Below, one piece after another: positions 4,179 through 39,971 of a stretch of 64,000 bases of DNA. Both the position numbers and the translations under genes were made by a program. The notes under the pieces were generated by a model. It did no database searches. It saw only the letters and a list, made by a program, of their open reading frames with translations, and was not told the origin of the DNA. Each line of letters opens with the position of its first letter. Within the stretch, counting starts at the first letter, position 1. This stretch comes from an uncultured Acidobacteriota bacterium (lineage in GTDB: Bacteria; Acidobacteriota; Thermoanaerobaculia; Multivoradales; UBA5704), in contig CAVVXL010000001.1 of NCBI GenBank assembly GCA_963752235.1, positions 1,856,590 to 1,920,589 on the forward strand, read 5' to 3'.

Positions 4179-4198
4179 GGCGGCCCTATAGGGCCGCC
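4179..4198 (-). terminator. putative intrinsic terminator hairpin downstream of the OMP gene
   Basis: Perfect palindrome GGCGGCCC-TATA-GGGCCGCC, followed on the minus strand by TTTGCATT. The U-tract is weak. Confidence 0.35.
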
Positions 4199-4226: not shown

Positions 4227-4841
4227 CTAGAAGCGGCCGCGCAGCCCGAGATACACCTTGCTCTGGATGCGGTCTTCCGACCCCTGGACGAGGTCGAAGC
4301 GACCGACGCCGAAGGCGCTCAGCTTGCGAGTGAGGTAGATGTCGACCCCGAACTGCGCGTTGGCGCCGAACTTCGACTGGGTGCCGGACACGCCGACGCC
4401 CGGGTTGCTGGTGAGCAGCGTGGCGTCGATCGAGTGCACCCCGGCTCCCACGCCGAGGAAGGTGTCGACCCCGCCGAGCGGGATGACGCCGACCAGGTTG
4501 ATGCCGAGGAGCAGGTCGCTCCCCTTCCCCGTGTGGCCGCTGCTCGGCTTCCAGTAGCCGACCTCCGGCTCGATGTAGCCGAAGATCCCGTCCTCGCTCG
4601 CCGACCGCCGGTCGTCGTCGCTTCGGCCATGGACGCGGATACGGAGCGAGGCCATCTCGTAGGTCTCCACCTTGCTCAGGGGCTCGACGAGGCCGATTCC
4701 CACCCCCAGGGCGAAGCGGTCGCCGTGCCGGTCACTCCGGTCGTCGTCGCGGTCGCGGTCGTTGGAGCTCTGGGCCTGAGCCCGGCCGGCGGAGACCAGG
4801 GTCGCCGCCGCCAGCAGGCCGACTATCATCCAGCGTTTCAT
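4227..4841 (-). CDS. outer-membrane beta-barrel protein (OmpA/OmpW-like small porin family)
   Basis: Signal peptide MKRWMIVGLLAAATLVSAGRAQA. Alternating amphipathic strands. C-terminal ...LGLRGRF ends with the aromatic residue typical of OMP beta-signals. Confidence 0.6.
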   Translation of the reverse strand: MKRWMIVGLLAAATLVSAGRAQAQSSNDRDRDDDRSDRHGDRFALGVGIGLVEPLSKVETYEMASLRIRVHGRSDDDRRSASEDGIFGYIEPEVGYWKPSSGHTGKGSDLLLGINLVGVIPLGGVDTFLGVGAGVHSIDATLLTSNPGVGVSGTQSKFGANAQFGVDIYLTRKLSAFGVGRFDLVQGSEDRIQSKVYLGLRGRF

Positions 4842-4896: not shown

Positions 4897-5910
4897 TTAC
4901 CACGAGCCGAGGAGGGCTTCGGCGACCTCCGGCAGGCGCGCGAAACCGGAAGGATAGCTGAGGCGGCGCACCGGCACCTGGCGCACCAGCCGGCTCAGGC
5001 GGTCAAGGCGCGAAGGCTGCAGGCCGGCCGCCTCGACGAGGCGCGGCGAGAACGAGTGGCGGACCAGCTCGATCAGCGCCTCGCCCCGGGAAACCGGCTG
5101 GATCTCGACGCCGCCCTCCGCCTCCGGCCGGCGGGAGGCCAGATAGATACAGGCGAGCGGGACGGGCGCATCCTGAAACGAGCCGAAGCCGCCGGTGCCG
5201 ACGGCGACGCTCCGCTTTTCCGAATCCTGCTGAACGAGTGGGAGGTCGACAAAATGCCCCAGGAAGTATTCGGTCTCGTCGGGCCACATCCGCATGTGAG
5301 GATAGGAAGGACAGGCCTGCCAGCGCTCTCCCACTTCCTCTACGACGAGCAGGTCGTCGGTCAGCAGCGATGCGCCGGTCCGCATCATGGCCGCGGCGAG
5401 ACCCGTCTTACCACCGCCGTGACGGGAGACGAAGGCCCATGCATGGCCGTTTAAATCCACCGCCGAGGCATGGAGGGTGGGCAGGCCGCGACGTTCGAAC
5501 CAGTAGGAAAAAACGGGGCCGAGGAGCCGTAGCTCTGCCAGACCGCTCTCCGGATCAGGGACGTAGCCTTCAATCTGATGGGGGTGGAGGTGAAAATCGC
5601 CAGCGCCCGGAAAATGGAGGACCTCTCCTTCGGGATTACGATAAAGGCTCCCCAGGCTCGCGCCGGTTCGGTCCTGGAATGCGCTGATATAGACAGGAGG
5701 GGAAGGGAATGGCTTCAGTGGCCTGCCGGATGAAAAGATGAAGGAGAACTCGGAGGGACCGCACCCTGACGGTAATACAAGGCGAAAGGGGAAGTCGCTG
5801 GAGATCGTCAATCCGAAAAGGCGAAGACGACGACATACCAGCGCTACCGCTCCAGGAAGATCTGATCCGTCCTCTTCAAACGCCCGTACTGCCGCCATTA
5901 AAATCGGCAT
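4897..5910 (-). CDS. HPr-kinase/phosphorylase-like kinase (lasso-peptide-associated HprK-related kinase)
   Basis: P-loop region HASAVDLNGHAWAFVSRHGGGKTGLAAAM resembles the HprK C-terminal Walker-A segment. Directly downstream of the precursor gene on the same strand. The start is uncertain: the track ORF begins with GTG at 5934, and in-frame ATGs lie at 5910 and 5898. Confidence 0.6.
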   Translation of the reverse strand: MPILMAAVRAFEEDGSDLPGAVALVCRRLRLFGLTISSDFPFRLVLPSGCGPSEFSFIFSSGRPLKPFPSPPVYISAFQDRTGASLGSLYRNPEGEVLHFPGAGDFHLHPHQIEGYVPDPESGLAELRLLGPVFSYWFERRGLPTLHASAVDLNGHAWAFVSRHGGGKTGLAAAMMRTGASLLTDDLLVVEEVGERWQACPSYPHMRMWPDETEYFLGHFVDLPLVQQDSEKRSVAVGTGGFGSFQDAPVPLACIYLASRRPEAEGGVEIQPVSRGEALIELVRHSFSPRLVEAAGLQPSRLDRLSRLVRQVPVRRLSYPSGFARLPEVAEALLGSW

Positions 5911-6061
5911 CCGTGAGGTCGGACAAGAGACCACCGGTCAAGTCTATGATTGATCCCCATTCCTGTAATCGAGGGCTTTCGTAGCGTTTCCGTAGAGGAG
6001 CATGCTCAACTGGAGAAGGGCTCGAGCGCGCCGCCGGAATCATCTCAGTATCCTTGTCCAT
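5876..6061 (-). CDS. lasso peptide precursor (A). Predicted 43-aa leader plus 18-aa core GLLSDLTDADFNGGSTGV
   Basis: 61-aa ORF between the cyclase and the kinase. The leader ...RYESPRLQEWGSIIDLTG matches YxxPxLx3Gx5Tx exactly, with Thr at -2. The core starts with Gly1 and has Asp8 (8-residue macrolactam). GGAAAGG RBS upstream. Local GC is lower than the surroundings. Confidence 0.65.
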   Translation of the reverse strand: MDKDTEMIPAARSSPSPVEHAPLRKRYESPRLQEWGSIIDLTGGLLSDLTDADFNGGSTGV

Positions 6062-6106
6062 CGCAAAGTACCTTTCCTGGAGAGTCTGAGACCTAGCGCT
6101 CCCTAC

Positions 6107-8008
6107 TCATGCTGCCGACCAACTAACTAGGGCTTCCCGCCGCCGGTTGCGGATCGCTTCGTAGCGTCTCAACCAGATCTCAAGTGTAATGGCGTACCAC
6201 AAGGAACGCCTCGACTCGTCGGTTCCACCAACAAGAAAGGCTCCATAAGCAGCTTGAAAGCGCTCTCCGTCCAAAACTCCAAGTTCGGCCGCGAGAGGAG
6301 CTCGCACGAGCTCTCTAATTTCGCCGGATGCCCGCTCCCGGACTCTCGAATCCAGGAACGCAGTGAAACGGGTCTTACCCACCCGAAGCCGGATTCTATC
6401 CGGAAGGATTCCCGTCATGGATCGCCGCAAGAGATTCTTAGACGAACCGAGCCGGAAGAGCTGCTCCCCCGGTATCGCCAGAACATACTCCAAGAGTCGC
6501 CGGTCCAGAAAGGGGTGCCGCACCTCAATGCCGAAGGATGCGGCGCTACGGTCATACCAATTCGCGAGCCGCCAGTACCAGGGTACGCCCACCAAGTTCG
6601 CGTAGATCTGCTGCCGTGCCGGATTTTCGAACATCCGCGGGACCTGGAGGGCCTCCTTAGAGCCTAAGAGGCCGGTCCGGCTAGCGAAGTCGGGTTGGAG
6701 CAGTGAACGCAGGGGCGCCCCTTGCCTTGGATTTAGCGTCGATCGCAGCAAGCGGTCGGCGGCAGCCGGCAGGTGAGGTCGGCCGAAGTGGCGATAGAAG
6801 ACCCGGAGAAGTGACTCATTCCGGCTCTTCGCGTGTCTCGCCACCTCAAGGACCGCGCGAAGGTCGCCTCTCCGCAGCCGTTCCGCATAGACAAGAGAGC
6901 TGCCGCCGAGCAGATCGTCCCCTCCGTGTCCCATCAGCAGCACGAAGGAACCCTGCTTCACCATCCGGCAAAAAATCTCCTGGTGGCAGGTGCGCCAGCC
7001 GATAAAAGGTGTATCAGGGCTGAGGGGAAGGGAGCGCTGTGACTCGAGGCTCCAGAGGCTCTCGGCCTTGATGGGCTCGACCTCCAGGCCGAGCTCCTCC
7101 GTCATCGCCCGGCTGTAGCTCCGCTCATCGCACTCCGTCAGGCGATCGAAGACGAACGTGTAGGCGCGGACCCTGGCGCCGGAAGATCGCTGCGCGAGCG
7201 CCGCCACCGCGGTCGAGTCGAGCCCGCCGCTCATCGCGACCGCCACGAAGCTTCCCGCACCACGGAGACGGTCGGTCACGGAGCGCTGAAAGAGGTCGCG
7301 GAAGTGAGCCGCATAATCCTCATCCCGCGAGTAGCGAACCTCGGCCGGGCGCGGATACCAGTACCGCTCCACCCGTATGCCCTCTGGATTGGCAGTCAAC
7401 CGCTGGCCTGGCCCCAGTTTGTGAACAGCCGCGAAAAAGCTCCGTTCCGGATCCTCGCATTGGCTGGTCAAGTAGGCGGCGATCTCGCGTTCGTTGTAGC
7501 CGTCGGGGACCGACGGATGGGCGAGGACCTGCACGGCGTCCGAGGCGAAGCAGACGAGGGAGCCGACGCGGGCATAGTGCAGTGGCTTGATGCCAAGAGG
7601 ATCGACGGCGCAGAAAAGGAGCCGACGGGCGGCGTCCCACACGGCGAGAGCGAAGTCACCGAGGAGGTGGTCCGTGCAAGCTTCTCCCCATTCTAGATAG
7701 GCCGCCAGGAGCAAAGCGGCATCCGAAGCGTCGGCGCCTCCCCGAGGCGCGAGCCGGGCGATCAGGTCAGGGCGATTGTCGAGGCGGCCGTCGAACAGGG
7801 CGCAGACCTGCCGTTGGGGATCGAGGAGAGGCTGTTCCAGGCCGCCTTCTTCTGGGTGGAGAGCGAGGAACGCCAGTCCTGCTTCGCCGAGAAACCGGTA
7901 ACCGATCCCGCCGGGAGCCCGATACGCTGCCGACTCCGCCATCCGACGAAAGGCCTCGGGCTCGATCCGGAGAGCCGCGAAGTCGACGATGCCGAAGACG
8001 CCGCTCAT
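6107..8008 (-). CDS. lasso peptide cyclase (C), an asparagine-synthetase-B homolog
   Basis: The AsnB C-terminal adenylation domain is present: SGGLDSTAVAAL is the PP-loop SGGxDS. The N-terminus MSGVFGI has Ser in place of the Ntn Cys, typical of an inactive glutaminase domain in lasso cyclases. The start ATG overlaps the PqqD stop (ATGA). Confidence 0.7.
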   Translation of the reverse strand: MSGVFGIVDFAALRIEPEAFRRMAESAAYRAPGGIGYRFLGEAGLAFLALHPEEGGLEQPLLDPQRQVCALFDGRLDNRPDLIARLAPRGGADASDAALLLAAYLEWGEACTDHLLGDFALAVWDAARRLLFCAVDPLGIKPLHYARVGSLVCFASDAVQVLAHPSVPDGYNEREIAAYLTSQCEDPERSFFAAVHKLGPGQRLTANPEGIRVERYWYPRPAEVRYSRDEDYAAHFRDLFQRSVTDRLRGAGSFVAVAMSGGLDSTAVAALAQRSSGARVRAYTFVFDRLTECDERSYSRAMTEELGLEVEPIKAESLWSLESQRSLPLSPDTPFIGWRTCHQEIFCRMVKQGSFVLLMGHGGDDLLGGSSLVYAERLRRGDLRAVLEVARHAKSRNESLLRVFYRHFGRPHLPAAADRLLRSTLNPRQGAPLRSLLQPDFASRTGLLGSKEALQVPRMFENPARQQIYANLVGVPWYWRLANWYDRSAASFGIEVRHPFLDRRLLEYVLAIPGEQLFRLGSSKNLLRRSMTGILPDRIRLRVGKTRFTAFLDSRVRERASGEIRELVRAPLAAELGVLDGERFQAAYGAFLVGGTDESRRSLWYAITLEIWLRRYEAIRNRRREALVSWSAA

Positions 8009-8292
8009 CCTGTGACTGCAGGTACTTGAAGCAGACCACGAGCGGCCAGCGCGCCGATGAGCTGGGCGAGATCTTCGCGCAGCCGCGCCTCGGGCACGTC
8101 GTACTCCGCGCAGAGGGCGTGGCAGACCGCTTCGGCATCGCCGTGGAGTTGAAGTAAAGACCACATCCGGGTTCCCACCTCGTCGAGTCCGTAGTACCGG
8201 CCGGTTACGGTTTCGAGGAGGACCGCCTCGCCGTCGAGATCCCGGAACAGCACGGATTCCGAGACGGTGATGCGAGGCGCAGAGTCAGTCAT
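8005..8292 (-). CDS. PqqD-family RiPP recognition element protein (lasso B1)
   Basis: 95 aa. ...FRDLDGEAVLLETVTGRYYGLDEVGTRMWSLL... has the PqqD/RRE fold signature. Translationally coupled to the cyclase. Confidence 0.75.
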   Translation of the reverse strand: MTDSAPRITVSESVLFRDLDGEAVLLETVTGRYYGLDEVGTRMWSLLQLHGDAEAVCHALCAEYDVPEARLREDLAQLIGALAARGLLQVPAVTG

Positions 8293-8337
8293 GATTTATA
8301 CAAGAACCGTTCCAGTATACCAGGGGGGTAGTCTTAC

Positions 8338-8375
8338 GCAAAAAAACAGGGAGGGCCGGGTGACCGGCCCTCCCT
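8338..8375 (-). terminator. rho-independent terminator of the giant repeat-protein gene
   Basis: On the minus strand: 12-bp perfect stem AGGGAGGGCCGG / CCGGCCCTCCCT with a 4-nt loop, then TTTTTTT. It lies 23 nt after the stop at 8398 and precedes the lasso B1 gene. Confidence 0.75.
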
Positions 8376-8397
8376 AAAGAGTCTCCTGCGAAGAGGC

Positions 8398-11300
8398 TTA
8401 GCTCCCGCAGTGATACCCGAAATCAACATCAGTCCGACTGGCCGTGAGGCTGAACGTGGCCTGGTTGGCGGTCGAAAGGCCATCGAGGTCGAACGTCTCG
8501 GTCCAATGAGCCGGCAGGGTGCTGGTGACGATTTTCACCGTGTAGGTGCCGGCCGCCAGGTTGCCGAAGCTATAGCTGCCGCTGCTGTTGGTCGTGGTGG
8601 TGGCGATGACCGTGCCGCTGCTGTTGAGCAGTTGGACGGTCACTCCGCTGATGCCCGCCTCGCCGGAGTCGAGGTGGCCGTTGCTGTTGGTGTCGTTCCA
8701 GACCTTGTCGCCGATCGTGAGGCTGCCGCGGTAGCCGAAGTCGACGTCGGTGCGGCTCTGGCCGGCCGTGAGGGCGAAGGTGGCCTTGCCGGCCGTGGAG
8801 ACGCCGTCGAGGTCGTACGTCGCGGTCACACCGGCGGGCAGGGTGCTGGTGACGATCTTCACCGAGTAGGTGCCGGCCGTCAGGCCCCCAAAGCTGTAGT
8901 TGCCGTCGGTCGCGGTGACAGCCGAGGCGATGGCGAGACCGGTGCTGTCGAGGAGCTGGACGGTGACGCCGTTGATGCCGGTCTCACCGGAGTCCTGGAC
9001 GCCGTTGCCGTTGGTGTCGGTCCACACCCGGTTACCCACGGAGCCGAGGGTGCCGCAGTCGTCCAGGTCGATGTTGATGTCGCCCTGGCCGGTGGTCTGG
9101 AAGCTGGAGCCGGTGGTCGGCTGATGCGTCACCGTCCACAGGTACCAGCCGGAGCCGCCGAAGTTGAGGTTCTTGCCGTTGGCGCCGAAGCCGACCTGGA
9201 ACGCCGGTCCGGTGTTGTGAATGGTGACCACCGCACCCGCGTAGCTGCCGGTGCCGGTCAGCGTGCCGGTGTAGCTCGTGAAGTAATACCAGCTGGCCGT
9301 GTTGATCGGGCCGCCGTTCTCGCTGTAGGCCGTGGACTTCAGCTCCTTCTTCGGGCTACCGGAGCCGATGGCGGTGGTCAAGCCGCTGAAGGTGACGTCC
9401 ACCGTGAAGCTCCTGGTGGGGTCGGAGACGCTCCGCAGCGTGCCCGTCAGGTGGGCGGTGTAGTCGGAGTTGACCACGAAGCTGCCCGGGTTCGGCGTGA
9501 ACACCAGGTCGGTGACGATGCCGGGGAACCAGAAGGCCTGGCCGCCGGAGGAGGGACCGTAGGTGGCGTCGAGGGCGGCGGCGAGGGCGCAGCCGTTGAC
9601 CTTGTAGCCAAAGTCCACGTCGGTGCGGGTCTGGCCGCCGGTGAGGGTGAAAGCGGCGACGTTGGCGGTCGCGATGCCGTCGAGGTCGTAGCTCGGGCTG
9701 AGCGCGCCGCCCAGCGGCAGGGTGCTCGTCACCACGCGGACGGAGTAGCTGCCGGCCACGAGGTTGGAGAAGTTGTAGAGGCCGCCACCCGAGGTGGTGG
9801 TGGTGGCAACGACGGTGCCGCCCGAGTTGAGGAGCTGGACGGTGACGCCGTCGAGGCCGGACTCGCCGGAGTCGAGGACGCCGTTGCCGTTCAAGTCGAA
9901 CCAGACCAGGTCACCGACCGAAGCGCTGGTGCGGTAACCGAAGTCGACGTCGGTGCGGCTGGCCCCGGCGGCGAGGGTGACGGTGGCCGCGTTGGCCGTC
10001 GCCAGACCGTCGAGGTCGTAGGTCTGCGCCGCCCCGCCGGGGATGGTGGAGGCGACCACCTTCACCGTGTAGGTGCCGGCCACCAGGTTGCTGAACGTGT
10101 AGTTGCCGTCGCCGCTCGTGGTGGCGGTCGCGATGACAGTGCCGCCGCTGTTGACCAGCTGGACGGTGACGCCGTTGATCCCGGCCTCGCCGGAATCCTG
10201 GACGCCGTTGCCGTTGGTGTCGAGCCAGACCCGGTCACCGATCGAGCCGGCGTTCTTGTAGCCGAAGTCGACGTCGGTGCGGTCCTGGGCCGCGGCGAGG
10301 GTGAAGGTGGCCTTGTTGGCCGTGGCGACGCCGTCGAGGTCGAAGCTCGGCGTCACACCGGCGGGCAGGGCGGTGGTGATGACCTTCACCGAGTAGGTGC
10401 CGGCGGGAATCCCGTCGAAGGTGTAGCTGCCGTCCCCCGCGGTGATCGCGGAGGCGAAGGCGACGCCGTTGTTGTCGAGGATCTGCACGGTGACGCCGTT
10501 GATGCCGGCCTCGCCGGAATCCTGGACGCCGTTGCCGTTGGTGTCGAGCCAGACCCGGTCACCGACCGAGCCGAGGGTCGAGCAGTCGTCCAGGTCGATG
10601 TTGATGTCGCCCTGGCCGGTCGTCGTGAAGCTCGAGCCGGAGGTGGGCTGGTGCGTCACCGTCCAGAGGAACCAGCCGGAGCCGCCGAAGCGGACGTTCT
10701 TGCCGTTGGCGCCGATGCCGGTCTGGAAGGCCGGGCCGGTGCGGGCGATGGTGATCACCGCCCCCGCATAGCTGCCGGTGCCGGTCAGAGTGCCGGTGTA
10801 TGTCGTGTAGTACGACCAGGTGGCGGTGTTGACCGGGCCGCCGTTTTCGGAGTAGGCCGAGGCCTGCAGCTCCTTCTTCGGGCTGCCGCTCCCCACGGTG
10901 TTGGTCAGGCCGCTGAAGGCGACGTCCACCGTGAAGCTCTTGGTGGGGTCGGAGACGCTGCGCAGCGTGCCGGTCAGGTGGGCGGTGCCGTCACCGTTGG
11001 CGACGAAGCCTCCCGGGTTGGGCGTGAAGACGAGGTCAGTGACGATGCCCGGGAACCAGAAGGCCTGGCCACCCGAGGAGGGGCCGTAGACGGTATCGAG
11101 CGGGGCGCCGACGGCGCAGCCGTTCGTCTTGTAGCCGAAGTCGACGTCGGTCCGGTTCTGGCCAGCGGCCAGAGTGAAGCTGGCGAAGTTGGCCGTGGCG
11201 ATCCCGTCGAGATCGAAGCTCGGAACCACACCGGCCGGCAGGCTGCTGGTCACCACGCGGACGGAGTAGGAGCCGGCCGCGAGGTTGCCGAAGGTGTAGT

Positions 11301-14300
11301 TGCCGTCGCCGCTGGTGGTGGTCGTCGCGACCACGTTGTTGGCGGAGTCGAGGAGCTGGACGGTGACGCCGTTGATGCCGGTCTCACCCGCGTCCTGGAC
11401 GCCGTTGCCGTTGCTGTCCATCCAGACACGGTCGCCGACCGAGCCGGTGAGGCGGTAACCGAAGTCGACGTCGGTGCGGTTCTGACCCGCGGTCAGGGTG
11501 ACCGCCGCCTGGTTCGCCGTCGCGGTCCCGTCGAGGTCGTAGGTCGCCGCGACCCCAGCGGGGAGCGAGGCGGGGACGATCTTGACGGTGTAGCTGCCGG
11601 CCGCCAGGTTGCTGAACGTGTAGTTGCCGTCGCCGGCCGTCGTGGTGGTCGCGATGACGGTACCGCCGCTGTTCACCAACTGGACGGTGACGCCGTTGAT
11701 CCCGGCCTCGCCGGAATCCTGGACGCCGTTGCCATTGGTGTCCGTCCAGACGCGGTCGCCGATCGAGCCGGTGTTCTTGTAGCCGAAGTCGACGTCGGTG
11801 CGGCTGGCACCGGCGGCGAGGGTGAGGGTGGCCTGGTTGGCCGTCGCCACGCCGTCGAGGTCGAAGGTCTCCGCCGTGCCGGCCGGCAGACCCGAGACCT
11901 TGACCGTGTAGGTACCGGCCGCCAGGTTGCTGAACGTGTAGTTGCCGTCACCGGCCGTCGTGGTCGTCGCCACCACGTTGTTCGAGGCGTCGAGCAGCTG
12001 GACGGTGACGCCGTTGATGCCCGTCTCGCCGGAATCCTGGACGCCGTTGCCGTTGCTGTCGAGCCAGACCCGGTCGCCGACCGAGCCGGTGTTCTTGTAA
12101 CCGAAGTCGACGTCGGTCCGGTTCTGGCCCGCCGTCAGGGTGAAGGTCGCCTGGTTGGCCGTCGCCACGCCGTCGAGGTCGAAGGTCTCCGCCGTACCGG
12201 CCGGCAGACCCGAGACCTTGACCGTGTAGGTACCGGCCGCCAGGTTGCTGAACGTGTAGTTGCCGTCACCGGCCGTCGTGATCGTCGCCACCACGTTGTT
12301 CGAGGCGTCGACGAGCTGAACGGTGACGCCGTTGATGCCGGTCTCGCCGGAATCCTGCACGCCGTTGCCGTTGGCGTCGAGCCAGACCCGGTCGCCGACC
12401 GAGCCGGTGTTCTTGTAGCCGAAGTCGACGTCGGTCCGGTTCTGGCCCGCCGTCAGGGTGAAGGTCGCCTGGTTGGCCGTCGCCACGCCGTCGAGGTCGA
12501 AGGTCTCCGCCGTACCGGCCGGCAGACCCGAGACCTTGACCGTGTAGCTGCCGGCGGCCAGGTTGCTGAACGTGTAGTTGCCATCGCCGGCCGTCGTCGT
12601 GGTCGCCACCACGTTGTTCGAGCTGTCGAGCAGCTGGACGGTGACGCCGTTGATGCCGGTTTCGCCGGAATCCTGAGCGCCGTTGCCGTTGGCATCGAGC
12701 CAGACGCGGTCGCCGATCGAACCCGTGTTCTTGTAGCCGAAGTCGACGTCGGTCCGGTTCTGGCCCGCCGTCAAGGTGACCGCCGCCTGGTTCGCCGTCG
12801 CAATCCCGTCGAGGTCGAAGGTAGGCGCCGTACCGGCCGGCAGACCCGAGACCTTGACCGTGTAGCTACCGGCCGCCAGGTTGCTGAACGTGTAGTTGCC
12901 GTCGCCGGCCGTCGTGGTAGTCGCGATCACGGTGCCGCCGCTGTTCACCAGCTGGACGGTGACCCCGTTGATCCCGTTCTCGCCGGAATCCTGAGCGCCG
13001 TTGGCGTTGGTGTCGAGCCAGACACGGTCACCGATCGAGCCCGTGTTCTTGTAACCGAAGTCGACGTCGGTCCGGTTCTGACCCGCCGTCAGGGTGAAGG
13101 TCGCCTGGTTGGCCGTCGCGATCCCGTCGAGGTCGAAGGTCGGCGCCGTACCGGCCGGCAGACCCGAGACCTTGACGGTGTAGCTGCCAGCCGCCAGGTT
13201 GCTGAACGTGTAGTTGCCGTCGCCCGCCGTCGTCGTGGTCGCCACCACGTTGTTCGAGCTGTCGAGCAGTTGGACGGTGACGCCGTTGATGCCGGTCTCG
13301 CCGGAATCCTGAGCGCCGTTGCCGTTGGCATCGAGCCAGACGCGGTCGCCGATCGAACCCGTGTTCTTGTAGCCGAAGTCGACGTCGGTCCGGTTCTGGC
13401 CCGCCGTCAAGGTGACCGCCGCCTGGTTCCCCGTCGCGATCCCGTCGAGGTCGTAGGTCGCCGTCACGCCAGCCGGGAGCGAGGCGGCAACAATCTTGAC
13501 GGTGTAGCTGCCGGCCGCCAGGTTGCCGAACGTGTAGTTGCCGTCGCCAGCGGTCGTCGTCGTCGCGAGGACGGTGCCGCCGCTGTTCACCAGCTGGACG
13601 GTGACGCCGTTGATGCCGGTCTCGCCGACGTCCTGAGCGCCGTTGCCGTTGCTGTCGAGCCAGACCCGGTCGCCGACCGAGCCGGTGTTCTTGTAGCCAA
13701 AGTCGACGTCGGTCCGGTTGGCACCGGCGGCGAGGGTGAAGGTCGCTTGGTTGGCCGTCGCGATCCCGTCGAGGTCGTAGGTCGCCGCGGTCCCAGCGGG
13801 GAGCGAGGCGGCAACGATCTTGACGGTGTAGGTGCCGGCCGCCAGGTTATTGAATGTGTAGTTGCCGTCGCCACCAGTCGTGGTGGTCGCCACCACGTTG
13901 TTCGCGGCGTCGAGCAGCTGGACGGTGACGCCGTTGATGCCGGTCTCACCGGAATCCTGGATGCCGTTGCCGTTGGCGTCGAGCCAGACGCGGTCGCCGA
14001 CCGAGCCCGTGTTCTTGTAGCCGAAGTCGACGTCGGTGCGGCTGGCGCCGGCGGCGAGGGTGAAGGTCGCCTGGTTGGCCGTTGCGATCCCGTCGAGGTC
14101 GTAGGTCGCCGCGACTCCAGCCGGGAGCGAGGTCGCCACGATCTTGACCGTGTAGCTGCCGGCCGCCAGGTTGTTGAACGTGTAGTTGCCGTCACCCGCG
14201 GTCGTCGTGGTCGCTACCAAGTTGTTCGAGGCGTCGAGCAGTTGGACGGTGACGCCGTTGATGCCGGTCTCGCCGGCGTCCTGCACGCCGTTGCCGTTGC

Positions 14301-17300
14301 TGTCGAGCCAGACCCGGTCGCCGACCGAGCCGGTGTTCTTGTAGCCGAAGTCGACGTCGGTCCGGTTCTGACCGGCGGTGAGGGTGAAGGTCGCCTGGTT
14401 GGCCGTCGCGATCCCGTCGAGGTCGAAGGTCGCCGCGGTCCCAGCGGGGAGCGAAGCGGGGACGATCTTGACGGTGTAGCTGCCGGCCGCCAGGTTGCCG
14501 AACGTGTAGTTGCCGTCGCCGGCGGTCGTCGTCGTCGCGACCACGGTGCCGCCGCTGTTCACCAGTTGGACGGTGACGCCGTTGATGCCGGTCTCGCCGG
14601 CGTCCTGAGCGCCGTTGCCGTTGGCGTCGAGCCAGACCCGGTCGCCGACCGAGCCGGTGTTCTTGTAGCCGAAGTCGACGTCGGTCCGGTTGGCGCCGGC
14701 GGCGAGCGTGAAGGTCGCCTGGTTGGCCGTCGCGATCCCGTCGAGGTCGTAGGTCGCCGCGGTCCCAGCGGGGAGCGAGGCGGCAACGATCTTGACGGTG
14801 TAGGTGCCGGCCGCCAGGTTGTTGAATGTGTAGTTGCCGTCGCCACCGGTCGTGGTGGTCGCCACCACGTTGTTCGCGGCATCGAGCAGCTGGACGGTGA
14901 CGCCGTTGATGCCGGTCTCGCCGGAATCCTGGATGCCGTTGCCGTTGGCGTCGAGCCAGACGCGGTCGCCGACCGAGCCCGTGTTCTTGTAGCCGAAGTC
15001 GACGTCGGTGCGGCTGGCGCCGGCGGCGAGCGTGAAGGTCGCCTGGTTGGCCGTTGCGATCCCGTCGAGGTCGTAGGTCGCCGCAGTCCCAGCCGGGAGC
15101 GAGGCGGCAACGATCTTGACCGTGTAGCTGCCGGCGGCCAGGTTGCTGAACGTGTAGTTGCCGTCGCCCGCGGTCGTCGTGGTCGCCACCAGGTTGTTCG
15201 AGGCGTCGAGCAGCTGGACGGTGACGCCGTTGATGCCGGTCTCGCCGGAATCCTGGACACCGTTGCCATTCGCGTCGAGCCAGACCCGGTCGCCGACCGA
15301 GCCCGTGTTCTTGTAGCCGAAGTCGACGTCGGTGCGGCTGGCGCCGGCGGCGAGCGTGAAGCTGGCCGTGTTGGCGGTGGCGACGCCGTCGAGGTCGTAG
15401 GTCGGCGTCACCCCCGGCGGGAGCGAGGCGGCCACGATCTTGACGGTGTAGCTGCCGGCCACCAAGTTGTCGAACGTGTAGTTGCCGTCGCCGCTCGTGG
15501 TGGTGGTGGCCACCACGGTGTTCGCGGCATCGAGCAGTTGGACGGTGACGCCGTTGATGCCGGCCTCACCGGCGTCCTGGGTGCCGTTGCCGTTGCTGTC
15601 GAGCCAGACGCGGTCGCCGACCGAGCCCTTGTTCTTGTAGCCGAAGTCGACGTCGGTGCGGGTGGCGCCGGCGGCGAGGGTGAAGCTGGCGGCGTTCGCC
15701 GTGGCGATGCCGTCGAGGTCGTAGGTCGGGGTCATGCCGGCCGGCAGGGTGCTGGGCACCACGCGGACGGTGTAGTTGCCGGCGGTGGCCGGGAAGGCGT
15801 AGTTGCCGTCGCCGCTGGTGATCGTCGCCGCGACGACGTTGCCGCCGGCGTCGACGAGCTGGACGGTGACGCCGTTGATGCCGGCCTCGCCGGAATCCTG
15901 AACGCCGTTGCCGTTGGCATCGAGCCAGATGCGGTCACCGACCGAGCCGACCGTCGAGCAGCCGTCGAGGTCGACGTTGATGTCGCCCTGGCCGGTCGAC
16001 TGCAGGTTGGCGCCGGCGGTGGGCTGGCTGGTGACGTTCCACACGTACCAGCCGGAGCCGCCGAAGTTGCCGTTCTTGCCGTTGGCGCCGGCACCCACCT
16101 GGAAGGCCGGGCCGGTCTGGTCGATCCGGATCACCGCCCCCGCGTAGTTGCCGATCCCCGTCAGGGTGCCGGTGTACGAGGTGTAGTAGTACCAGGTCGC
16201 CGGATCGATCGAGCCGCCGTTGGCCACGTAGGCCGAGGCGAAGAGCTCTTCCTTCGGGCTGCCGGCCGGCGGCGTCGACTGATAGCCGCTGAACTGCACG
16301 TCGACCGTGAAGGCGTTGTTCGGATCCGACTTGCTGCGCACGGTCCCGGTCAGGTGAGCGGTGCCGTCGGTGTTCGAGGTGAAGCCACCGGCCGTCGGGA
16401 CGAAGACGAAGTCCGTGCCGATGCCGGGCAGGTAGAACGAGTGGCCGTTCGGACCGTTGTTGAGAGCCGGGTCCGAGATGGACGGCATGGCGCAGGAGCT
16501 GCCACCCGGAGGGGGCGTCCAGTAGCCGAAGTCGACGTCGGTGCGGTTGGCGCCGGCGGCAAGGGCGAAGGAAGCCGTGTTGGCCGTGCCGAGGCCGTCG
16601 AGGTCGTAGGTCTCGGCCAAGCCGGCCGGAAGCGTGGCGGTGACCACCCGGACGCTGTAGGAGCCGCCCGCGAGGTTGCCGAAGAGGTAGTTGCCGTCGC
16701 CGGCCGTGACTGTCGAGGCGATCACGTTCGAGCCGCTGTCGAGCAGCTGAACGGTCACCCCGTTGATGCCGGCCTCGCTGGAGTCCTGGACGCCGTTGCC
16801 GTTGCTGTCGAGCCAGACGCGGTCGCCGACCGAGCCGTTGGCGCGGTAGCCGAAGTCGACGTCGGTGCGGTTGGTGCCGGCGGCGAGAGTGAACGTGGCC
16901 TGGTTGGCCGAGGCGACGCCGTCGAGGTCGTAGGTCTCGGCGACTCCGGCCGGTAGCGAAGAGACGCGGACGGTGTAGGTGCCGGCCGCCAGGTTGTTGA
17001 ACGTGTAGTTGCCGTCACCCGCCGTGGTGGTGGTCGCCACGACGTTGTTCGAGCCATCGAGGAGCTGGACGGTGACGCCGTTGATGCCGGCCTCACCCGC
17101 GTCCTGGACGCCGTTGCCGTTGCCGTCGAACCAGACGCGGTCGCCGACCGAGCCGGTGTTCTTGTAGCCGAAGTCGACGTCGGTGCGGGTGGCACCGGCG
17201 GCGAGGGTGAAGGTCGCCTGGTTGGCGCTCGCGACGCCGTCGAGGTCGTAGGTCTCGGCGACCCCGGCCGGCAGCGAAGAGACGCGGACGGTGTAGGTGC

Positions 17301-20300
17301 CGGCCGCCAGGTTGTTGAACGTGTAGTTGCCGTCGCCCGCGGTCACCGTGGTGCCCACCACGTTGTTGGCGCCGTCGAGCAGTTGGACGGTGACGCCGTT
17401 GAGGCCGGCCTCGCCCGCATCCTGCGCGCCGTTGCCGTTGCCGTCGAGCCAGACGCGGTCGCCGACCGAGCCGGTGTTCCGGTAGCCGAAGTCGACGTCG
17501 GTGCGGGTGGCACCGGCGGCGAGGGTGAAGGTCGCCTGGTTGGCGCTCGCGATGCCGTCGAGGTCGTAGGTCTCCGCGACCCCGGCCGGCAGCGACGAGA
17601 CGCGCACCGTGTAGGTGCCCCCCGCCAGGTTGTTGAACGTGTAGTTGCCGTCGCCCGCGGTCACCGTAGTGCCGACCACGTTGTTGGCGCCGTCGAGCAG
17701 CTGGACGGTGACGCCGTTGATGCCGGCCTCGCCCGCATCCTGCGCGCCGTTGCCGTTGCCGTCGAGCCAGACGCGGTCGCCGACCGAGCCGGTATTCCGG
17801 TAGCCGAAGTCGACGTCGGTGCGGTTGGCGCCGGCGGCGAGGGTGAAGGTCGCCTGGTTGGCCGTCGCGATGCCGTCGAGGTCGTAGGTCTCCGCGACCC
17901 CGGCCGGCAGCGACGAGACGCGCACCGTGTAGGTGCCCCCCGCCAGGTTGTTGAACGTGTAGTTGCCGTCGCCGGACGTGGCCGTGGTAGCCACGACGTT
18001 GGCGCTGGCGTCGAGGAGCTGAACGGTGACGCCGTTGAGGCCGGCCTCACCCGCGTCCTGGACACCGTTGCCGTTGCTGTCGAGCCAGACGCGATCACCG
18101 ACCGAGCCGGTGGCCCGGTACCCGAAGTCGACATCGGTCCGATGGTCACCGGCGGCGATCGTCAGGGTGGCGGTATTGGCCGTGGCGATCCCGTCGAGGT
18201 CGTAGGTCGGCGCGACTCCCGGGGGGAGCGAGCCGGCGACGACGCGGACCGTGTAGGTGCCGCTGTTGAGGTTGTCGAAGGTGTAGTTGCCGTCACCGCT
18301 GGTGGTCGCGGTGGCGACGACGTTGCTCGCGCCGTCGAGGAGCTGGACGGTGACGCCGTTGATGCCGGCCTCACCCGCGTCCTGGACGCCGTTGCCGTTG
18401 CTGTCGGTCCACACGCGGTCGCCGATCGAGCCGGTGCCGCGATAGCCGAAGTCGACGTCGGTGCGGTGGGCACCGGTCGCCAGGCTGAACGAGGCGCTGT
18501 TGGCCGAGGCGACACCGTCGAGGTCGTAGGTCTCCGCAACTCCCGCGGGGAGCGTGGCGGCGTCGACCTGGACGGTGTAGTTGCCGGCGATCAGAGTGTC
18601 GAAGGTGTAGTTGCCGTCACCGCTGGTCGTGGTGGTCGCGACCAGGACGCCGTACGCGTCGAGCAGCTTGATGGTCACGCCGTTGATGCCGGTCTCGCCG
18701 GCGTCCTGGACGCCGTTGCCGTTGGTGTCGAGCCAGACCCGGTCACCGACCGAGGCCGTGGCCGGCGGGCAGTCGCCGAGGTCGATGTTGATGTCGCCCT
18801 GACCGGTCGGCAGCAGGTTGGCACCGACGGTGGGCTGGCTGGTGACGTTCCAGATGAACCAGCCCGAGGCGCCAAAATGAGTGTTCTTGCCGTTGGCGCC
18901 GGCTCCCACCTCGAAGGCCGGACCCGTCTGCGTCATGTCGATGATGGCGCCGGCGTAGTTGCCGATCCCCGTCAGGGTGCCGGTGAAACCGGTGTAGTAG
19001 AACCAGGTCGAGGGATCGACCGGACCGCCGTTCTCGACGTACGCGGGGGGGAGGAGCTCCTTCTTCGGGCTCCCCGCCGGCGGGCTCGCCGAGTAGCCGG
19101 TGAAGTGCACCACCACGGTGAACGCGTTGTTCGGGTTCGAGGCGCTGCGCAGAAGGCCCGTGAGCTGAGCGGTGCCGTCGGCGTTCGCCACGAAGCTGCC
19201 GGGGATCGGCGTGAAGATGAAGTCGGTGCCGATGCCGGGCAGATAGAAGGAATGGCCGGACGGGAACTGGTTGTAGGCCGGGTCGCCGGCCGCGCCGGTC
19301 GCGCAATCCGTGAAGACCGGCGGCGGCGTGCGGTAGCCGAAGTCGACGTCGGTGCGGTTGGCGCCGGGGGCGAGACTGACGGTGGCCTGGTTGGCCGTGG
19401 CGACGCCGTCGACGTCATAGGTCTCCGCGACTCCGGCCGGAAGCGTCGAGGTGACGATGCGGACCGTGTAGGTGCCGCCGGCGAGGCCGGTGAAGGTGTA
19501 GTTGCCGTCGCCCGCCGTGGTGGCCGTGGCGATGACGTTCGAGCCGGCGTCGAGGAGCTGCACGGTGACGCCGTTGATCCCGGCCTCGCCGGCATCCTGG
19601 ACGCCGTCGCCGTTGCCGTCGAGCCAGACCCGGTCACCGATCGAGCCGTTGAGGCGGTAGCCGAAGTCGACGTCGGTGCGGTTGGCGCCGGCGGCGAGAG
19701 TGAAGGTCGCCTGGTTGGCCGTCGCGACGCCGTCGAGGTCGTAGGTCTCCGCCACTCCAGGCGGAAGCGTGGCGGCGACGACACGGACGGTATAGGTGCC
19801 ACCGGCCAGGTTGTTGAACGTGTAGTTGCCGTCGCCCGCCGTGGTCGTCGTACCCACCACGTTGTTCGAAGCGTCGAGCAGCTGGACGGTGACGCCGTTG
19901 ATCCCGGCCTCACCCGCGTCCTGGACGCCGTTGCCGTTCGAATCGAGCCAGACGCGGTCGCCGACCGAGCCGTTGTAGCGATAGCCGAAGTCGACGTCGG
20001 TGCGGTTGGCGCCGGCGGCGAGAGTGAAGGTCGCCTGGTTGGCCGTCGCGACGCCGTCGAGGTCGTAGGTCTCGGTGACCCCCGCCGGCAGCGACGAGAC
20101 ACGCACCGTGTAGGTGCCCCCCGCCAGGTTGTTGAACGTGTAGTTGCCATCGCCCGACGTGGTCGTCGTGCCCACCACGTTGTTCGAAGCGTCGAGCAAC
20201 TGGACGGTGACGCCGTTGATCCCGGCCTCACCGGCGTCCTGGACGCCGTTGCCGTTGCTGTCGAGCCAGACCCGGTCGCCGACCGAGCCGGTGTAGCGGT

Positions 20301-23300
20301 AGCCGAAGTCGACGTCGGTGCGGTTCGCGCCGGCGGCGAGGGTGAAGGTCGCCTGGTTGGCCGTCGCGACGCCGTCGAGGTCGTAGGTCTCGGTGACCCC
20401 CGCCGGCAGCGACGAGACGCGCACCGTGTAGGTGCCGCCCGCCAGGTTGTTGAACGTGTAGTTGCCGTCGCCCGACGTGGTCGTCGTGCCCACCACGTTG
20501 TTCGAAGCGTCGAGCAACTGGACGGTGACGCCGTTGATCCCGGCCTCACCGGCGTCCTGGACGCCGTTGCCGTTGCTGTCGAGCCAGACCCGGTCGCCGA
20601 CCGAGCCGGTGTAGCGGTAGCCGAAGTCGACGTCGGTGCGATTGGCGCCGGCGGCGAGGGTGAAGGTCGCCTGGTTGGCCGTCGCGACGCCGTCGAGGTC
20701 GTAGGTCTCGGTGACCCCCGCCGGCAACGACGAGACGCGCACCGTGTAGGTGCCGCCCGCCAGGTTGTTGAACGTGTAGTTGCCGTCGCCCGACGTGGTC
20801 GTCGTGCCCACCACGTTGTTCGAAGCATCGAGCAACTGGACGGTGACGCCGTTGATCCCGGCTTCGCCGGCATTCTGGACGCCGTTGCCGTTGCTGTCGA
20901 GCCAGACCCGGTCGCCGACCGAGCCGTTGTAGCGATAGCCGAAGTCGACGTCGGTGCGGTTGGCGCCGGCGGCGAGGGTAAAGGTCGCCTGGTTGGCCGT
21001 CGCGATGCCGTCGAGGTCGTAGGTCTCCGCGACCCCGGCCGGCAGCGACGAGACGCGCACCGTGTAGGTGCCGCCCGCCAGGTTGTTGAACGTGTAGTTG
21101 CCGTCACCCGCCGTAGTGGTGGTGCCGACGATGTTGTTCGCGCCGTCGAGGAGCTGGACGGTGACGCCGTTGATCCCGGCCTCGCCCGCGTCCTGGACGC
21201 CGTTGCCGTTGCTGTCGAGCCAGACGCGGTCGCCGACCGAGCCGGTGTAGCGGTAGCCGAAGTCGACGTCGGTGCGGTTCGCGCCGGCGGCGAGGGTGAA
21301 GGTCGCCTGGTTGGCCGAGGCGACGCCGTCGAGGTCGTAGGTCTCGGTGACCCCCGCCGGCAGCGACGAGACGCGCACCGTGTAGGTGCCCCCCGCCAGG
21401 TTGTTGAACGTGTAGTTGCCATCGCCCGCCGTGGTGGTGGTGCCGACGACGTTGTTCGCGCCGTCGAGGAGCTGGACGGTCACGCCGTTGATCCCGGCCT
21501 CGCCCGCATCCTGGACGCCGTTGCCGTTGGCGTCGAGCCAGACGCGGTCGCCGACCGAGCCCGTGTAGCGATAGCCGAAGTCGACGTCGGTGCGGTTCGC
21601 GCCAGCGGCGAGGGTGAAGGTCGCCTGGTTGGCCGTCGCGATGCCGTCGAGGTCGTAGGTCTCCGCGACCCCCGCCGGCAGCGACGAGACGCGCACCGTG
21701 TAGGTGCCCCCCGCCAGGTTGTTGAACGTGTAGTTGCCGTCACCCGCCGTAGTGGTGGTCCCCACGACGTTGTTCGCGCCGTCGAGCAGTTGCACCGTCA
21801 CGCCGTTGATCCCGGCCTCGCCGGCATCCTGGATGCCGTCGCCGTTGGCGTCGAGCCAGACGCGGTCGCCGACCGAGCCCGTGTAGCGATAGCCGAAGTC
21901 GACGTCGGTGCGGTTGGCGCCGGCGGCGAGGGTGAAGGTCGCCTGGTTGGCCGAGGCGACGCCGTCGAGGTCGTAGGTCTCGGTGACCCCGGCAGACAGC
22001 GACGAGACACGCACCGTGTAGGTGCCCGGCGCCAGGTTGTTGAACGTGTAGTTGCCGTCGCCGGACGTGGTGGTGGTGCCGACGACGTTGTTCGCGCCGT
22101 CGAGCAGTTGCACCGTCACGCCGTTGATCCCGGCCTCGCCGGCATCCTGGACGCCGTCGCCGTTGCTGTCGAGCCAGACGCGGTCGCCGACCGAGCCGGT
22201 GTAGCGATAGCCGAAGTCGACGTCGGTGCGGTCCATACCAGCGGCGAGGGTGAAGGTCGCCTGGTTGGCCGAGGCGACGCCGTCGAGGTCGTAGGTCTCG
22301 GTGATCCCCGCCGGCAGCGACGAGACGCGCACCGTGTAGGTGCCGCCCGCCAGGTTGCTGAACGTGTAGTTGCCGTCGCCGGCCGTGGTGGTGGTGCCGA
22401 CAACGTTGTTCGCGCCGTCAAGCAGCTGCACCGTCACGCCGTTGATCCCGGCCTCGCCGGCGTCCTGGACGCCGTTGCCGTTGCTGTCGAGCCAGACCCG
22501 GTCGCCGACCGAGGCGGAGCCGCGATAGCCGAAGTCGACGTCGGTCCGCGTCTGGCCGCTGGTCAGGGTGACCGTGGCGGCGTTGGGAGTGCCCACGCCG
22601 TCGAGGTCGTAGGTCGGCGTCGTCACCCCGGCCGGCAGCGTCGCGGGGACGACCCGGACCGTGTAGGTATCGGCCGCGAGGCTGTTGAAGGTGTAGTTGC
22701 CGTCGCCGCTCGTGGTGGCGGTACCCACCAGGTTGTTAGACGAGTCGAACAGCTGCACCGTGACGCCGTTGATGCCGGCCTCGCCCGCGTCCTGGATGCC
22801 GTTGCCGTTGGCATCGTTCCAGACGCGGTCGCCGAGCGCAGCCGTCGCCGTCACCGGAGCGTGATAACCGAAGTCGATGTCGGTCTCAACGGTGCCGGCG
22901 GGAGCGGGGACGGTGGCCGCGTCGGGGGTGTCGATGCCGTCGAGGTCGTAGGTCTCGACCGAGCCCGCGGGGAGCGTCGTGGTGTCGACCTGGATGGTGT
23001 ACGTCCCCTCGGCCAGGTGGTCGAAGGAGTAGTGGCCATCCGCGCCGGTCACCGTGCTCTCCAGCGGGTTCCCGGAGTCGTCGTACAGGTTGACCGTGAC
23101 GCCGACGAAGCCGGGCTCATCGGGATCCTGGACGCCGTCGCTGTTGACGTCGTTCCAGACCCGGTCGCCGAGCGAGACGTTGCCCTGGTAGCCGAAGTCG
23201 TAGTCGGTGCGGATCTCGCCGCCGACGATGGTGAGCGCCGCCTGGTTGGGCGTCGCGACCCCGTCCTCGTCGAAGGTCGGCGTCAGGCCGCCCGGCAGCG

Positions 23301-25362: not shown

Positions 25363-25546
25363 GGGGCATCCACCTCTTGGGCTGGTGAAGGTTTTAGGGA
25401 TGACTACGGTACGGACCAGTCTGAGCAGCGAGCGTCAGGGAAGCGTCAGGAGCCCGTCCATCGATGGGATACAATGGGATCCAGGCATTGCATGTCAGTT
25501 CGGTATTCGGAGTCCGGTCGAGGACCTTGCGCGAGGGAGTTTCATC

Positions 25547-32211: not shown

Positions 32212-33882
<1,671 letters not shown>

Positions 33883-33933
33883 CTATAGCTTGAAAGTCTT
33901 GATGAAGGTCGCTGGTCGCTTGGAGCGCGGGGA

Positions 33934-34236
33934 TCACTTGCTGCCGTTCGAACCGACGATGGCCAGGATCTCTTCCTCGCGGAGGATCACGTAGTCATTG
34001 CCGTCGAGCTTGATCTCGCTGCCGGAGTACTTGCCCATGAGGACGCGGTCGCCCTCCTTGACGTCCATCGGCGCGCGCTTGCCCTCGTCGTTGAGCTTGC
34101 CCGGGCCGACCGCGACCACCTCGGCCTCCTGCGGCTTCTCTTTGGCGCTGTCCGGAATGATGATGCCCCCCCGGACCTGCTCTTCCTGCTCAATGCGCTT
34201 CACCAGGACACGATCGTGCAAAGGACGAATATTCAT
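33934..34236 (-). CDS. groES: co-chaperonin GroES (10 kDa)
   Basis: [46 protein letters not shown]...; AAGGAGGT RBS. The track ORF (to 34446) is an upstream run-on. Confidence 0.95.
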
Positions 34237-34295
34237 AGTGCTTACCTCCTTGGAGACTAGGTTGGAGCGGAGATTGGGTTCATTGCGGCCGGCTG

Positions 34296-34322
34296 TCAGC
34301 ACTCGCCCGCATTGACTGCTAA
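34296..34322. promoter_or_regulatory. CIRCE-like HrcA operator upstream of groES
   Basis: TCAGCACTC-N9-GACTGCTAA versus consensus TTAGCACTC-N9-GAGTGCTAA (one mismatch per arm), about 60-85 nt upstream of the groES ATG. Confidence 0.6.
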
Positions 34323-34475: not shown

Positions 34476-34898
34476 TCAGGCGGTGCCGAGGGGGGCGAAG
34501 CGCTCCTCGATGCCGGCGGGCTCGCCGATCGCCCGCCCGTCGCGCTCGACCCAGGCGTGAGCGGCGAGCGTGCCCCCCTGGCGGAGGACGCCGATCTTCA
34601 GCTCGCTCGGGATGCCGTGCCGCCCGAGCAGCCAGCGCAGGGTGAGCGCCCGGGGGACGCAGCGCATCGGATAGAGATGATGGCGCGCCGCCGCCGCCGC
34701 CGCCCAGACGAGCCGGCCGACCGCTTCCTCACCAGAGGCCCTGCCGGCCGGCGCGGGGGCGAGCCAGCGCTCCAGCCGGGCGAAGGAGAGCGCGCGCAGC
34801 CCCAGATCGGCGGCGAGGAGGATCCCCCAGGCGCGAGCGAAGGCCCAGAGGTCCGCCGGGCTCCTGCCCTTCCGCCGATTGAGATCTCGAACCGCCAT
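34476..34898 (-). CDS. transglutaminase-like cysteine protease, lasso-peptide B2 (leader peptidase) homolog; orphan
   Basis: 140 aa. ...[29 protein letters not shown]...[17 protein letters not shown] has the Cys...His(AHAWVE)...Asp arrangement and spacing of PF13471/lasso B2 proteins. Confidence 0.6.
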
Positions 34899-39869: not shown

Positions 39870-39971
39870 ACGATCTCCTGCACCGACGATCTCCCGCACC
39901 GTAAGGCCAGCGTTCGGACTCAAGGGCCGGAAGCGGCATTATAGAAGCGAAACTGAGGCAAAATACGTTTC

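Follow-up and report, generated by a model that had tools for sequence, protein, structure and literature searches.

Gene content of the locus

The stretch of DNA analysed here (the window) comprises 64,000 nucleotides (nt) of contig CAVVXL010000001.1 from a Thermoanaerobaculia (Acidobacteriota) genome. Four of its genes, B1, C, A and K, had been predicted from the letters of the sequence to form a compact lasso peptide cluster at 4897-8397 (Table 1). Lasso peptides that are tailored by a kinase are already known. The open reading frames (ORFs) of all four genes were confirmed on the minus strand; as predicted, they run in the same direction and are tightly packed, and the stop codon of B1 and the start codon of C overlap as ATGA at 8008-8005. 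The ORF of K spans 4897-5934; in the closest relatives the gene is called from the position that corresponds to the ATG at 5898, and this ATG, which overlaps the final 23 nt of A, is the likely start codon. The gene order B1-C-A-K was repeated in more than 30 independent loci, an arrangement far beyond chance. Together with a leader peptidase gene (B2) located 26 kb away, the locus is likely an operon for a class-II-type lasso peptide that is probably phosphorylated and would be processed by a B2 protease encoded in trans.

Table 1 Features discussed in the text. Positions are those of the window unless another locus (L number) is named
Feature	Position	Strand	Description
B1	8005-8292	-	PqqD-type recognition element (RRE) for peptides made on ribosomes and modified after translation (RiPPs), 95 aa
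C	6107-8008	-	Probable lasso macrolactam cyclase, Asn-synthase homologue, 633 aa
A	5876-6061	-	Precursor, 61 aa
A leader	5933-6061	-	43 aa, ...RKRYESPRLQEWGSIIDLTG
A core	5879-5932	-	18 aa, GLLSDLTDADFNGGSTGV
K	4897-5898	-	P-loop kinase of HPrK/PEPCK (phosphoenolpyruvate carboxykinase) fold, 333 aa; likely start
-10 promoter box TATACT	8314-8319	-	Lies 21 nt before the start codon of B1
Intrinsic terminator of the giant gene	8340-8376	-	13-bp stem with 10 GC pairs (8376-8347), then T7
Gene for a 204-aa secreted protein	4227-4841	-	Small, outer-membrane beta-barrel-like; 55 nt after K
Perfect 10+10 palindrome	4179-4198		GGCGGCCCTA/TAGGGCCGCC; after the gene for the 204-aa protein
Giant secreted protein gene	8398-25026	-	16,629 nt, 5542 aa
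N-terminal domain of the giant protein (N-domain)	23767-25026	-	Unannotated, ~400 aa; SdrD_B repeats come after
SARP/BTAD-AAA (AfsR-like) regulator gene	25385-27847	+	Trans_reg_C + BTAD + AAA_16; divergent from the giant gene
B2	34476-34898	-	Lasso leader peptidase, 140 aa; Cys80, His114; 26 kb from the operon
C-terminal-PqqD protein upstream of K, L004/L021	8830-10032
C-terminal-PqqD protein upstream of K, L029	8977-9960
C-terminal-PqqD protein upstream of K, L035	9060-9962
C-terminal-PqqD protein upstream of K, L044	8763-9950

The recognition element B1 and the probable cyclase C

B1 passed the PqqD profile PF05402 with 63 bits (cutoff 23.4), which upheld its assignment as a PqqD-type RRE protein. 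The best NCBIfam match, lasso_PqqD_Bac, reached 52.6 bits (curated cutoff 80); scores on the lasso-specific models NF033536 and NF033530 stayed below their high cutoffs. In related loci, proteins 49-86% identical to B1 are encoded directly upstream of C.

C matched PF00733 with 169 bits and additionally contained GATase_6/7 domains. Both residues on which the original prediction had based an AsnB homologue with altered N-terminus were seen: the pyrophosphate loop SGGLDS (MSGGLDS) is intact, and the protein begins with MSGVFG, Ser2 replacing the Cys of N-terminal nucleophile (Ntn) enzymes. The best NCBIfam match was the lasso cyclase model NF033535 (353.9 bits, curated cutoff 525), and an exact-sequence look-up of C returned no recorded match. 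The GATase domains and a score of 228.8 bits against the true asparagine synthase model TIGR01536 could be taken to make C an asparagine synthetase or amidotransferase of the ordinary kind, with coincidental neighbours. This reading is effectively refuted. The two marks of AsnB membership are both missing from C, which has no Cys2 and remains below the TIGR01536 cutoff (267.1), and the lasso model scores higher (354 vs 229 bits). The linkage of C to A, B1 and K is fixed, and a true AsnB is encoded elsewhere in the window, in the ORF 53231-55771, which served as an internal control and scored 335 bits on the AsnB model (cutoff 267) and 143 bits on the lasso model. This ORF had also been considered as a second lasso cyclase to which B2 might belong, and was ruled out since it passes the true AsnB model. 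Neither a second cyclase nor a second RRE was found in the window.

The precursor A and its predicted product

The predicted 61-aa peptide was confirmed, and its leader has the canonical lasso spacing Y(-17)xxP(-14)xL(-12)...T(-2). Against the model NF033521 (lasso_leader_L3) the precursor scored 18 bits (cutoff 19); the model was matched by 20 of the 24 members of the precursor family, with a best E value of 4e-08, and Y27, P30, W35, G36, L41 and T42 of A were invariant among 24 relatives.

In the core, Gly1 was found in 28 and Asp8 in 32 of 34 homologous precursors, and therefore an 8-residue Gly1-Asp8 macrolactam is predicted. Ser or Thr occupied the C-terminal position -4 in 29 of the 34, within a (G)GS motif. 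This was the only conserved hydroxyl residue of the core, position 3 not being conserved, and therefore Ser15 in the GGS motif of A is predicted as the phosphorylation site. The assignment to the paeninodin type had to be given up: A ends in Val, and a C-terminal Ser occurs in only 2 of the 34 relatives. The calculated mass of GLLSDLTDADFNGGSTGV minus H2O is 1719.795 Da, in line with the predicted value of about 1.7 kDa, and 1799.761 Da with one phosphate. Altogether, the product is probably an acidic, phosphorylated lasso peptide.

K as a probable precursor kinase

No Pfam family matched K, including the HPr kinase family PF07475, and the score against TIGR04352 (HprK_rel_A) was 26.5 bits (cutoff 200). 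A profile of 31 K-family sequences found HPr kinases in the PDB (E 0.012), the match falling on the P-loop region, and the AlphaFold2 model of K (pLDDT 88) gave phosphoenolpyruvate carboxykinases as top Foldseek matches. The phosphoenolpyruvate carboxykinase structural superfamily also holds the catalytic domain of HPr kinase. When K was compared with BsfK of the Bradymonas sediminis bsf cluster, a lasso precursor kinase validated by experiment whose sequence was obtained by translating the gene printed in PMC10368454, 29% identity over 207 aa was found (E 2e-13). The motif LHASAV...HGGGKTG...LTDD of K, invariant across 31 homologues, aligned with the His / GxGK(S/T) / DD motif of BsfK, in which the importance of the catalytic His, Lys, Ser/Thr and Asp-Asp was shown by mutagenesis (PMC10368454). 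Such kinases modify the precursor while it is linear and still carries its leader (PMC9266682, PMC10368454). The predicted HPr-kinase-like P-loop protein was thus recovered through its PEPCK/HPrK-like fold, its homology to BsfK and its retained motif, and the profiles, the leader, the more than 30 syntenic loci and the BsfK homology support a lasso cluster of the split-B kind in which an HPrK-like kinase does the tailoring. A fused B2-like protease was also considered for the first 130 aa of K; the two-domain PEPCK-like model of the whole protein and the separate B2 gene ruled this out.

K might alternatively phosphorylate not the precursor but something else, such as a small molecule, a regulator or the partner surface protein described below, or might itself be an immunity or regulatory factor. 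Its scores on HprK-related models are very weak, related clusters with similar cores contain an NTP_transf_5 enzyme in place of K, and the phosphorylation site is a prediction. However, in more than 30 loci the K gene comes after A or overlaps it; K also shares homology with BsfK, its catalytic motif being intact, and occurs in a family in which the core Ser/Thr is co-conserved with it. We consider a role of K outside peptide tailoring improbable.

A B2 protease encoded in trans

Neither B2 nor a lasso-type ABC exporter lies within 4897-8397, just as had been noted before. The four genes are not the whole system, since a lasso B2 gene was found at 34476-34898. Its product scored 75 bits on NF033537 (lasso_biosyn_B2, cutoff 33) and 80.5 bits on PF13471, and the regions of its catalytic Cys and His align with BsfB2. 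A hidden Markov model built from the in-cluster B2 proteins of Holophagales relatives matched it with E 1.8e-37. Its identity to these proteins was 41-48%, a divergence like that of B1, C and K. In five loci (L025, L028, L030, L031 and L037, four labelled Holophagales and one Thermoanaerobaculia) the gene order is B1-B2-CxxCxxCC protein-C-A-K. Still closer, with 67-71% identity, were the B2 genes located 3-4 kb from K in the sister Thermoanaerobaculia loci L006, L009, L012 and L013, where a convergent B2-groES-groEL block lies downstream of K. In the window the B2-groES-groEL block is found beyond the giant gene, groES and groEL (32212-34239) being under control of a CIRCE (controlling inverted repeat of chaperone expression) element. 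Because B2 abuts or lies inside the cluster in relatives, has diverged to a matching degree and finds no second cyclase or RRE in the window, we pair it with the B1-C-A-K genes. The system of the window is complete (A, B1, B2, C and K), split over 26 kb.

Were the four-gene cassette self-sufficient, either a housekeeping protease would take off the leader or it would stay on, and B2 would serve another cluster elsewhere in the genome. B2 is indeed unlinked and monocistronic, L004/L021 have no B2 within 10 kb of the cluster, and, judging from the title of a 2019 report by Zyubko cited in PMC9266682, pseudomycoidin can be produced without leader and leader peptidase. Against this stands the invariance of Thr(-2), the residue recognized by B2, throughout the precursor family, in addition to the evidence just given for pairing, namely the position and matching divergence of B2 in relatives and the lack of any other lasso cyclase or RRE in the window. 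Self-sufficiency of the cassette therefore appears quite improbable, and B2 is best seen as the leader peptidase of the lasso system.

Several observations were made around B2 and possible transport genes. Between the B2 stop codon and the groES promoter there is a perfect 30-nt inverted repeat (34359-34388/34440-34469) with a 51-nt spacer, and the CIRCE-like operator near groES (34296-34322) has 2 mismatches, with none expected by chance. The CxxCxxCC protein (PF03692), a putative Zn/Fe-binding protein, is encoded between B2 and C at ~7300-7980 in the five loci mentioned above and is lacking in the window. At 44766-51909 (minus strand) lie the genes of an ABC efflux system of the MacB type, with an HlyD adaptor, an ABC ATPase and two FtsX/MacB permeases; a PAS/HAMP histidine kinase and a sigma-54 response regulator are encoded alongside. 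As a candidate for the lasso D-type exporter, this MacB/HlyD system (47.5-51.9 kb), the only ABC system found in the window, was rejected, being of the wrong type and showing no tie to the cluster.

Expression signals and extent of the operon

Upstream of B1, an alignment of eight related loci showed an invariant TATA.T box and retention of the terminator hairpin of the giant gene. Since the hairpin and the TATAAT-like box are both conserved in the eight loci, the lasso operon has its own promoter, in agreement with the own promoter and strong upstream terminator of the original prediction. A generic sigma-70 scan upstream of B1 called no full promoter, and the box emerged only from the alignment.

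Downstream, K is separated from the gene for the 204-aa protein by a 55-nt gap with a strong Shine-Dalgarno sequence and no terminator. The 204-aa protein carries a signal peptide, ends in YLGLRGRF and weakly matches OMP_b-brl (E 0.004); its family gave no match to the PDB by sequence. On these sequence features it is probably a small outer-membrane beta-barrel. The gene follows K in 13 Thermoanaerobaculia loci (mean column identity 70%) and probably belongs to the operon as a fifth member. This involvement is uncertain because its GC content at third codon positions (GC3) is host-like and because it is absent from the Holophagales-type clusters. The operon may end at the palindrome 4179-4198, which the scan for terminators passed over because its T-run is weak.

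Distribution and base composition

More than 350 close homologues of K were found, all without names and mostly from Thermoanaerobaculia metagenome-assembled genomes (MAGs), and a K profile search returned 1,788 representatives of 50%-identity clusters at E<=1e-30 and 12,361 at E<=1e-10. The 52 genome loci, all MAGs, belong to Acidobacteriota, Chloroflexota, Gemmatimonadota, Deinococcota, Actinomycetota and Armatimonadota. The assumption that kinase-containing lasso clusters of this kind are poorly sampled is thus untenable at the sequence level; the kinase family is well sampled in metagenomes and uncharacterised. A literature search found no paper on the K family and none pairing 'lasso peptide' with Thermoanaerobaculia, and the product is, as supposed, probably undescribed, nothing from the family having been characterised.

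In many distant versions of the cluster, a protein of ~300-400 aa with a C-terminal PqqD domain is encoded immediately upstream of K (examples in Table 1); it could be an RRE fusion dedicated to the kinase. No such protein is encoded in the window, so B1 probably serves both roles there.

The lasso genes of the window have a GC3 of ~0.72, compared with 0.90-0.94 in the flanking genes. Taken by itself, this drop over 4.9-8.3 kb would suit a relic that is silent or in decay, or an island of foreign DNA acquired recently. A recent horizontal transfer was nevertheless rejected as the cause: in seven syntenic relatives (L001, L004, L006, L012, L013, L028 and L031), as in the window, GC3 of the lasso genes lies 0.1-0.2 below that of the flanking giant and outer-membrane-like genes, and therefore the depression, a stable difference in codon usage, is an old property and not the mark of a recent insertion. 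Likewise, all ORFs are intact, the catalytic motifs are invariant in 31 kinases, and promoter and terminator are conserved, which makes a relic or foreign island very improbable.

Linkage to a giant surface protein and a SARP-type regulator

The 16.6-kb adhesin-like gene upstream of the cluster was confirmed at 8398-25026. The relatives contradict the view that it is an unrelated neighbour, since N-domain homologues are encoded beside or inside lasso clusters in several phyla. In essentially every acidobacterial locus with enough flanking sequence, and likewise in several Chloroflexota loci, a gene for an N-domain homologue with SdrD_B repeats lies directly upstream of B1. Sampling in the reverse direction, from six distant N-domain homologues, placed four of them beside lasso-type genes (L058, L059, L061 and L062). 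L058 is a Bacteroidetes-labelled MAG; on the Chloroflexi contig L059 the N-domain gene lies between C-K and PqqD-NTP_transf_5; and in L062, from candidate division BRC1, the N-domain homologue occurs with B1-B2-C and six tandem precursors. In a metagenome scan with the N-domain alignment, 17 loci could be scored, having 2.5 kb or more of sequence downstream of the N-domain gene; B1, B2, C or K was found in 14 of them, and in several metagenome loci lasso genes were present on both sides of the N-domain gene. The giant gene is thus a conserved partner and not a chance neighbour of the cluster. Since the partner is exported by the Sec pathway and the lasso enzymes reside in the cytoplasm, it is unlikely to be a substrate.

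The six tandem precursors of L062 (7213-8866, downstream of B1-B2-C) have leaders of the type KPYATPKLxVHG...IT and cores with Asp8. The same locus also has an ABC exporter and an NTP_transf_5 gene, and no K.

A homologue of the SARP-type regulator (43% identical) adjoins the N-domain gene in L025, L028, L030, L031 and L037, and another homologue adjoins K in L040, which makes the protein encoded at 25385-27847 a candidate regulator of the cluster. We tentatively raise the possibility, which we hold to be less probable than its negation, that lasso operon, N-domain/SdrD_B protein and SARP regulator constitute one functional module across several phyla; members were seen in Acidobacteriota, Chloroflexota, the Bacteroidetes-labelled MAG and candidate division BRC1. 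If so, the lasso peptide would work with the surface protein, for instance as ligand, cofactor, maturation factor or autoinducer, rather than as a free antibiotic, and a lasso family would gain a native physiological role. We know of no native function for most lasso peptides, and a literature search pairing 'lasso peptide' with SdrD found nothing.

Proposed biosynthetic route

Transcription starts from the promoter with the conserved -10 box right after the terminator of the giant gene, and the transcript would cover B1-C-A-K and probably also the small outer-membrane-like gene. Going by what is known of the families, B1 would bind the YxxPxL motif in the leader of the 61-aa precursor. K would then phosphorylate the still-linear precursor, probably assisted by B1 as in the case of BsfK, with Ser15 as the predicted site. 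The cysteine protease B2, supplied in trans, would cut after Gly(-1), guided by Thr(-2), whereupon C would adenylate Asp8 and join it to the amine of Gly1, giving an 8-residue ring through which the 10-residue tail would be threaded. The expected product is GLLSDLTDADFNGGSTGV minus H2O, with a mass of 1719.80 Da, or 1799.76 Da when monophosphorylated. Gene identities, motifs and synteny are direct observations at this locus and its relatives; chemistry, phosphorylation site and threading we infer from them.

A number of points weigh against this route. C, B1 and K remain below the cutoffs of the lasso-specific NCBIfam models (354/525, 52.6/80 and 26.5/200 bits). B2 stands alone as a monocistronic gene at a distance of 26 kb, with a hairpin of its own behind it, which weakens the case for co-regulation, and no lasso-type ABC exporter, and hence no dedicated one, was found in the window. 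The phosphorylation site is read from conservation, and the GGS motif may serve folding or activity instead. Some relatives have tails without a bulky plug residue, so threading is not guaranteed. Finally, the relatives are all MAGs or metagenome contigs, and no product has ever been observed.

Other features of the window

A stand-alone LanC-like cyclase is encoded at 39972-41252 (plus strand; PF05147 134 bits, weak matches to the C-terminus of LanL/LanM). Divergent from it, a gene at 37887-39923 (minus strand) encodes a 678-aa protein weakly similar to the Hvo_1808 surface-protein family; the two genes could be part of another RiPP-related locus. The ORF that served as AsnB control (53231-55771, plus strand, 846 aa) has its AsnB-type part at aa 8-374 and a MurF-like ligase segment at aa 645-800, and the next ORF (55794-56321, plus strand) matches the MurF C-terminus. 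The AsnB-MurF ORF is either an unusual fusion or an artefact of a frameshift or overlap.

The segment 51900-53200 (GC 0.62) contains many 65-nt inverted and direct repeats around ORFs without Pfam match, the pair 52073-52138 and 52929-52994 being 95% complementary, and it may be a small mobile or REP-like (repetitive extragenic palindromic) element. That the repeat-flanked ORF 52249-52854 encodes a REP-associated transposase was a guess without Pfam support and was dropped. At 42164-42518, in a lower-GC intergenic region, there are two tandem copies of 174-181 nt with 71% identity, and a 20-nt hairpin at 42196-42242. When the window was scanned against Rfam, no RNA family reached its gathering score.

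Comparison with known systems

To our knowledge, all characterised cases of kinase-tailored lasso peptides come from Firmicutes or Proteobacteria. The window provides a clean example of a very large uncharacterised family that is found mainly in Acidobacteriota.

A close counterpart is the bsf cluster of Bradymonas sediminis (BsfA/B1/B2/C/D/K/N; PMC10368454), which shares with the window a diderm host, split B1 and B2, and an HPrK-like kinase that has 29% identity to K over 207 aa and an equal catalytic motif. BsfK phosphorylates an internal Ser of the linear precursor with the aid of B1 (PMC10368454), and the same is proposed here for K. The target position differs: BsfK acts on Ser3 with Ile(-2) in the leader, whereas the window has Leu3, Thr(-2) and a conserved Ser near the C-terminus, and thus neither the Ser/Thr3 nor the Ile/Val at -2 by which a BsfK-type substrate could be recognized. 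Moreover, B2, an ABC exporter and a nucleotidyltransferase are all encoded in cis in the bsf cluster, whereas all three are lacking in cis in the window.

Paeninodin, ThcoK, SyanK and pseudomycoidin (PMC9266682) likewise represent lasso clusters with an HPr-kinase-like kinase and a His-Lys-Asp-Asp motif. In these systems the precursor is phosphorylated before processing by B2 and C, and the kinases PadeK, ThcoK, SyanK and PsmK modify a strictly conserved C-terminal Ser (PMC9266682). In contrast, the C-terminal residue in the window is Val, and gene order and host phylum differ as well.

The HPr-rel-A system of NCBIfam (TIGR04352, TIGR04353 PqqD_rel_X) also combines an HprK-related kinase with a PqqD-family peptide chaperone. 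The window scores 26.5 against a cutoff of 200 (TIGR04352) and 31.9 against 35 (TIGR04353), so it represents a separate family and not that equivalog. Acidobacterial lasso clusters from soil metagenomes (PMC9064862) also have split B1/B2/C and yielded no product; one of the clusters includes a kinase. Unlike in the window, this kinase is of the aminoglycoside phosphotransferase type and B2 is in cis, and no surface-protein partner was reported.

Measured against these systems the cluster itself is ordinary, and the conserved linkage to the adhesin is its interesting, unexplained part. Three features go beyond the usual textbook account: the essential protease has its gene in trans, a conserved Ser close to the C-terminus points to a new position of phosphorylation, and there is a strong genetic link across phyla to a surface protein with an undescribed domain. 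Genome-mining tools that demand B2 in cis would miss or truncate such clusters, and the link to the surface protein offers a concrete, testable handle on what peptides of this kind do for their producers.

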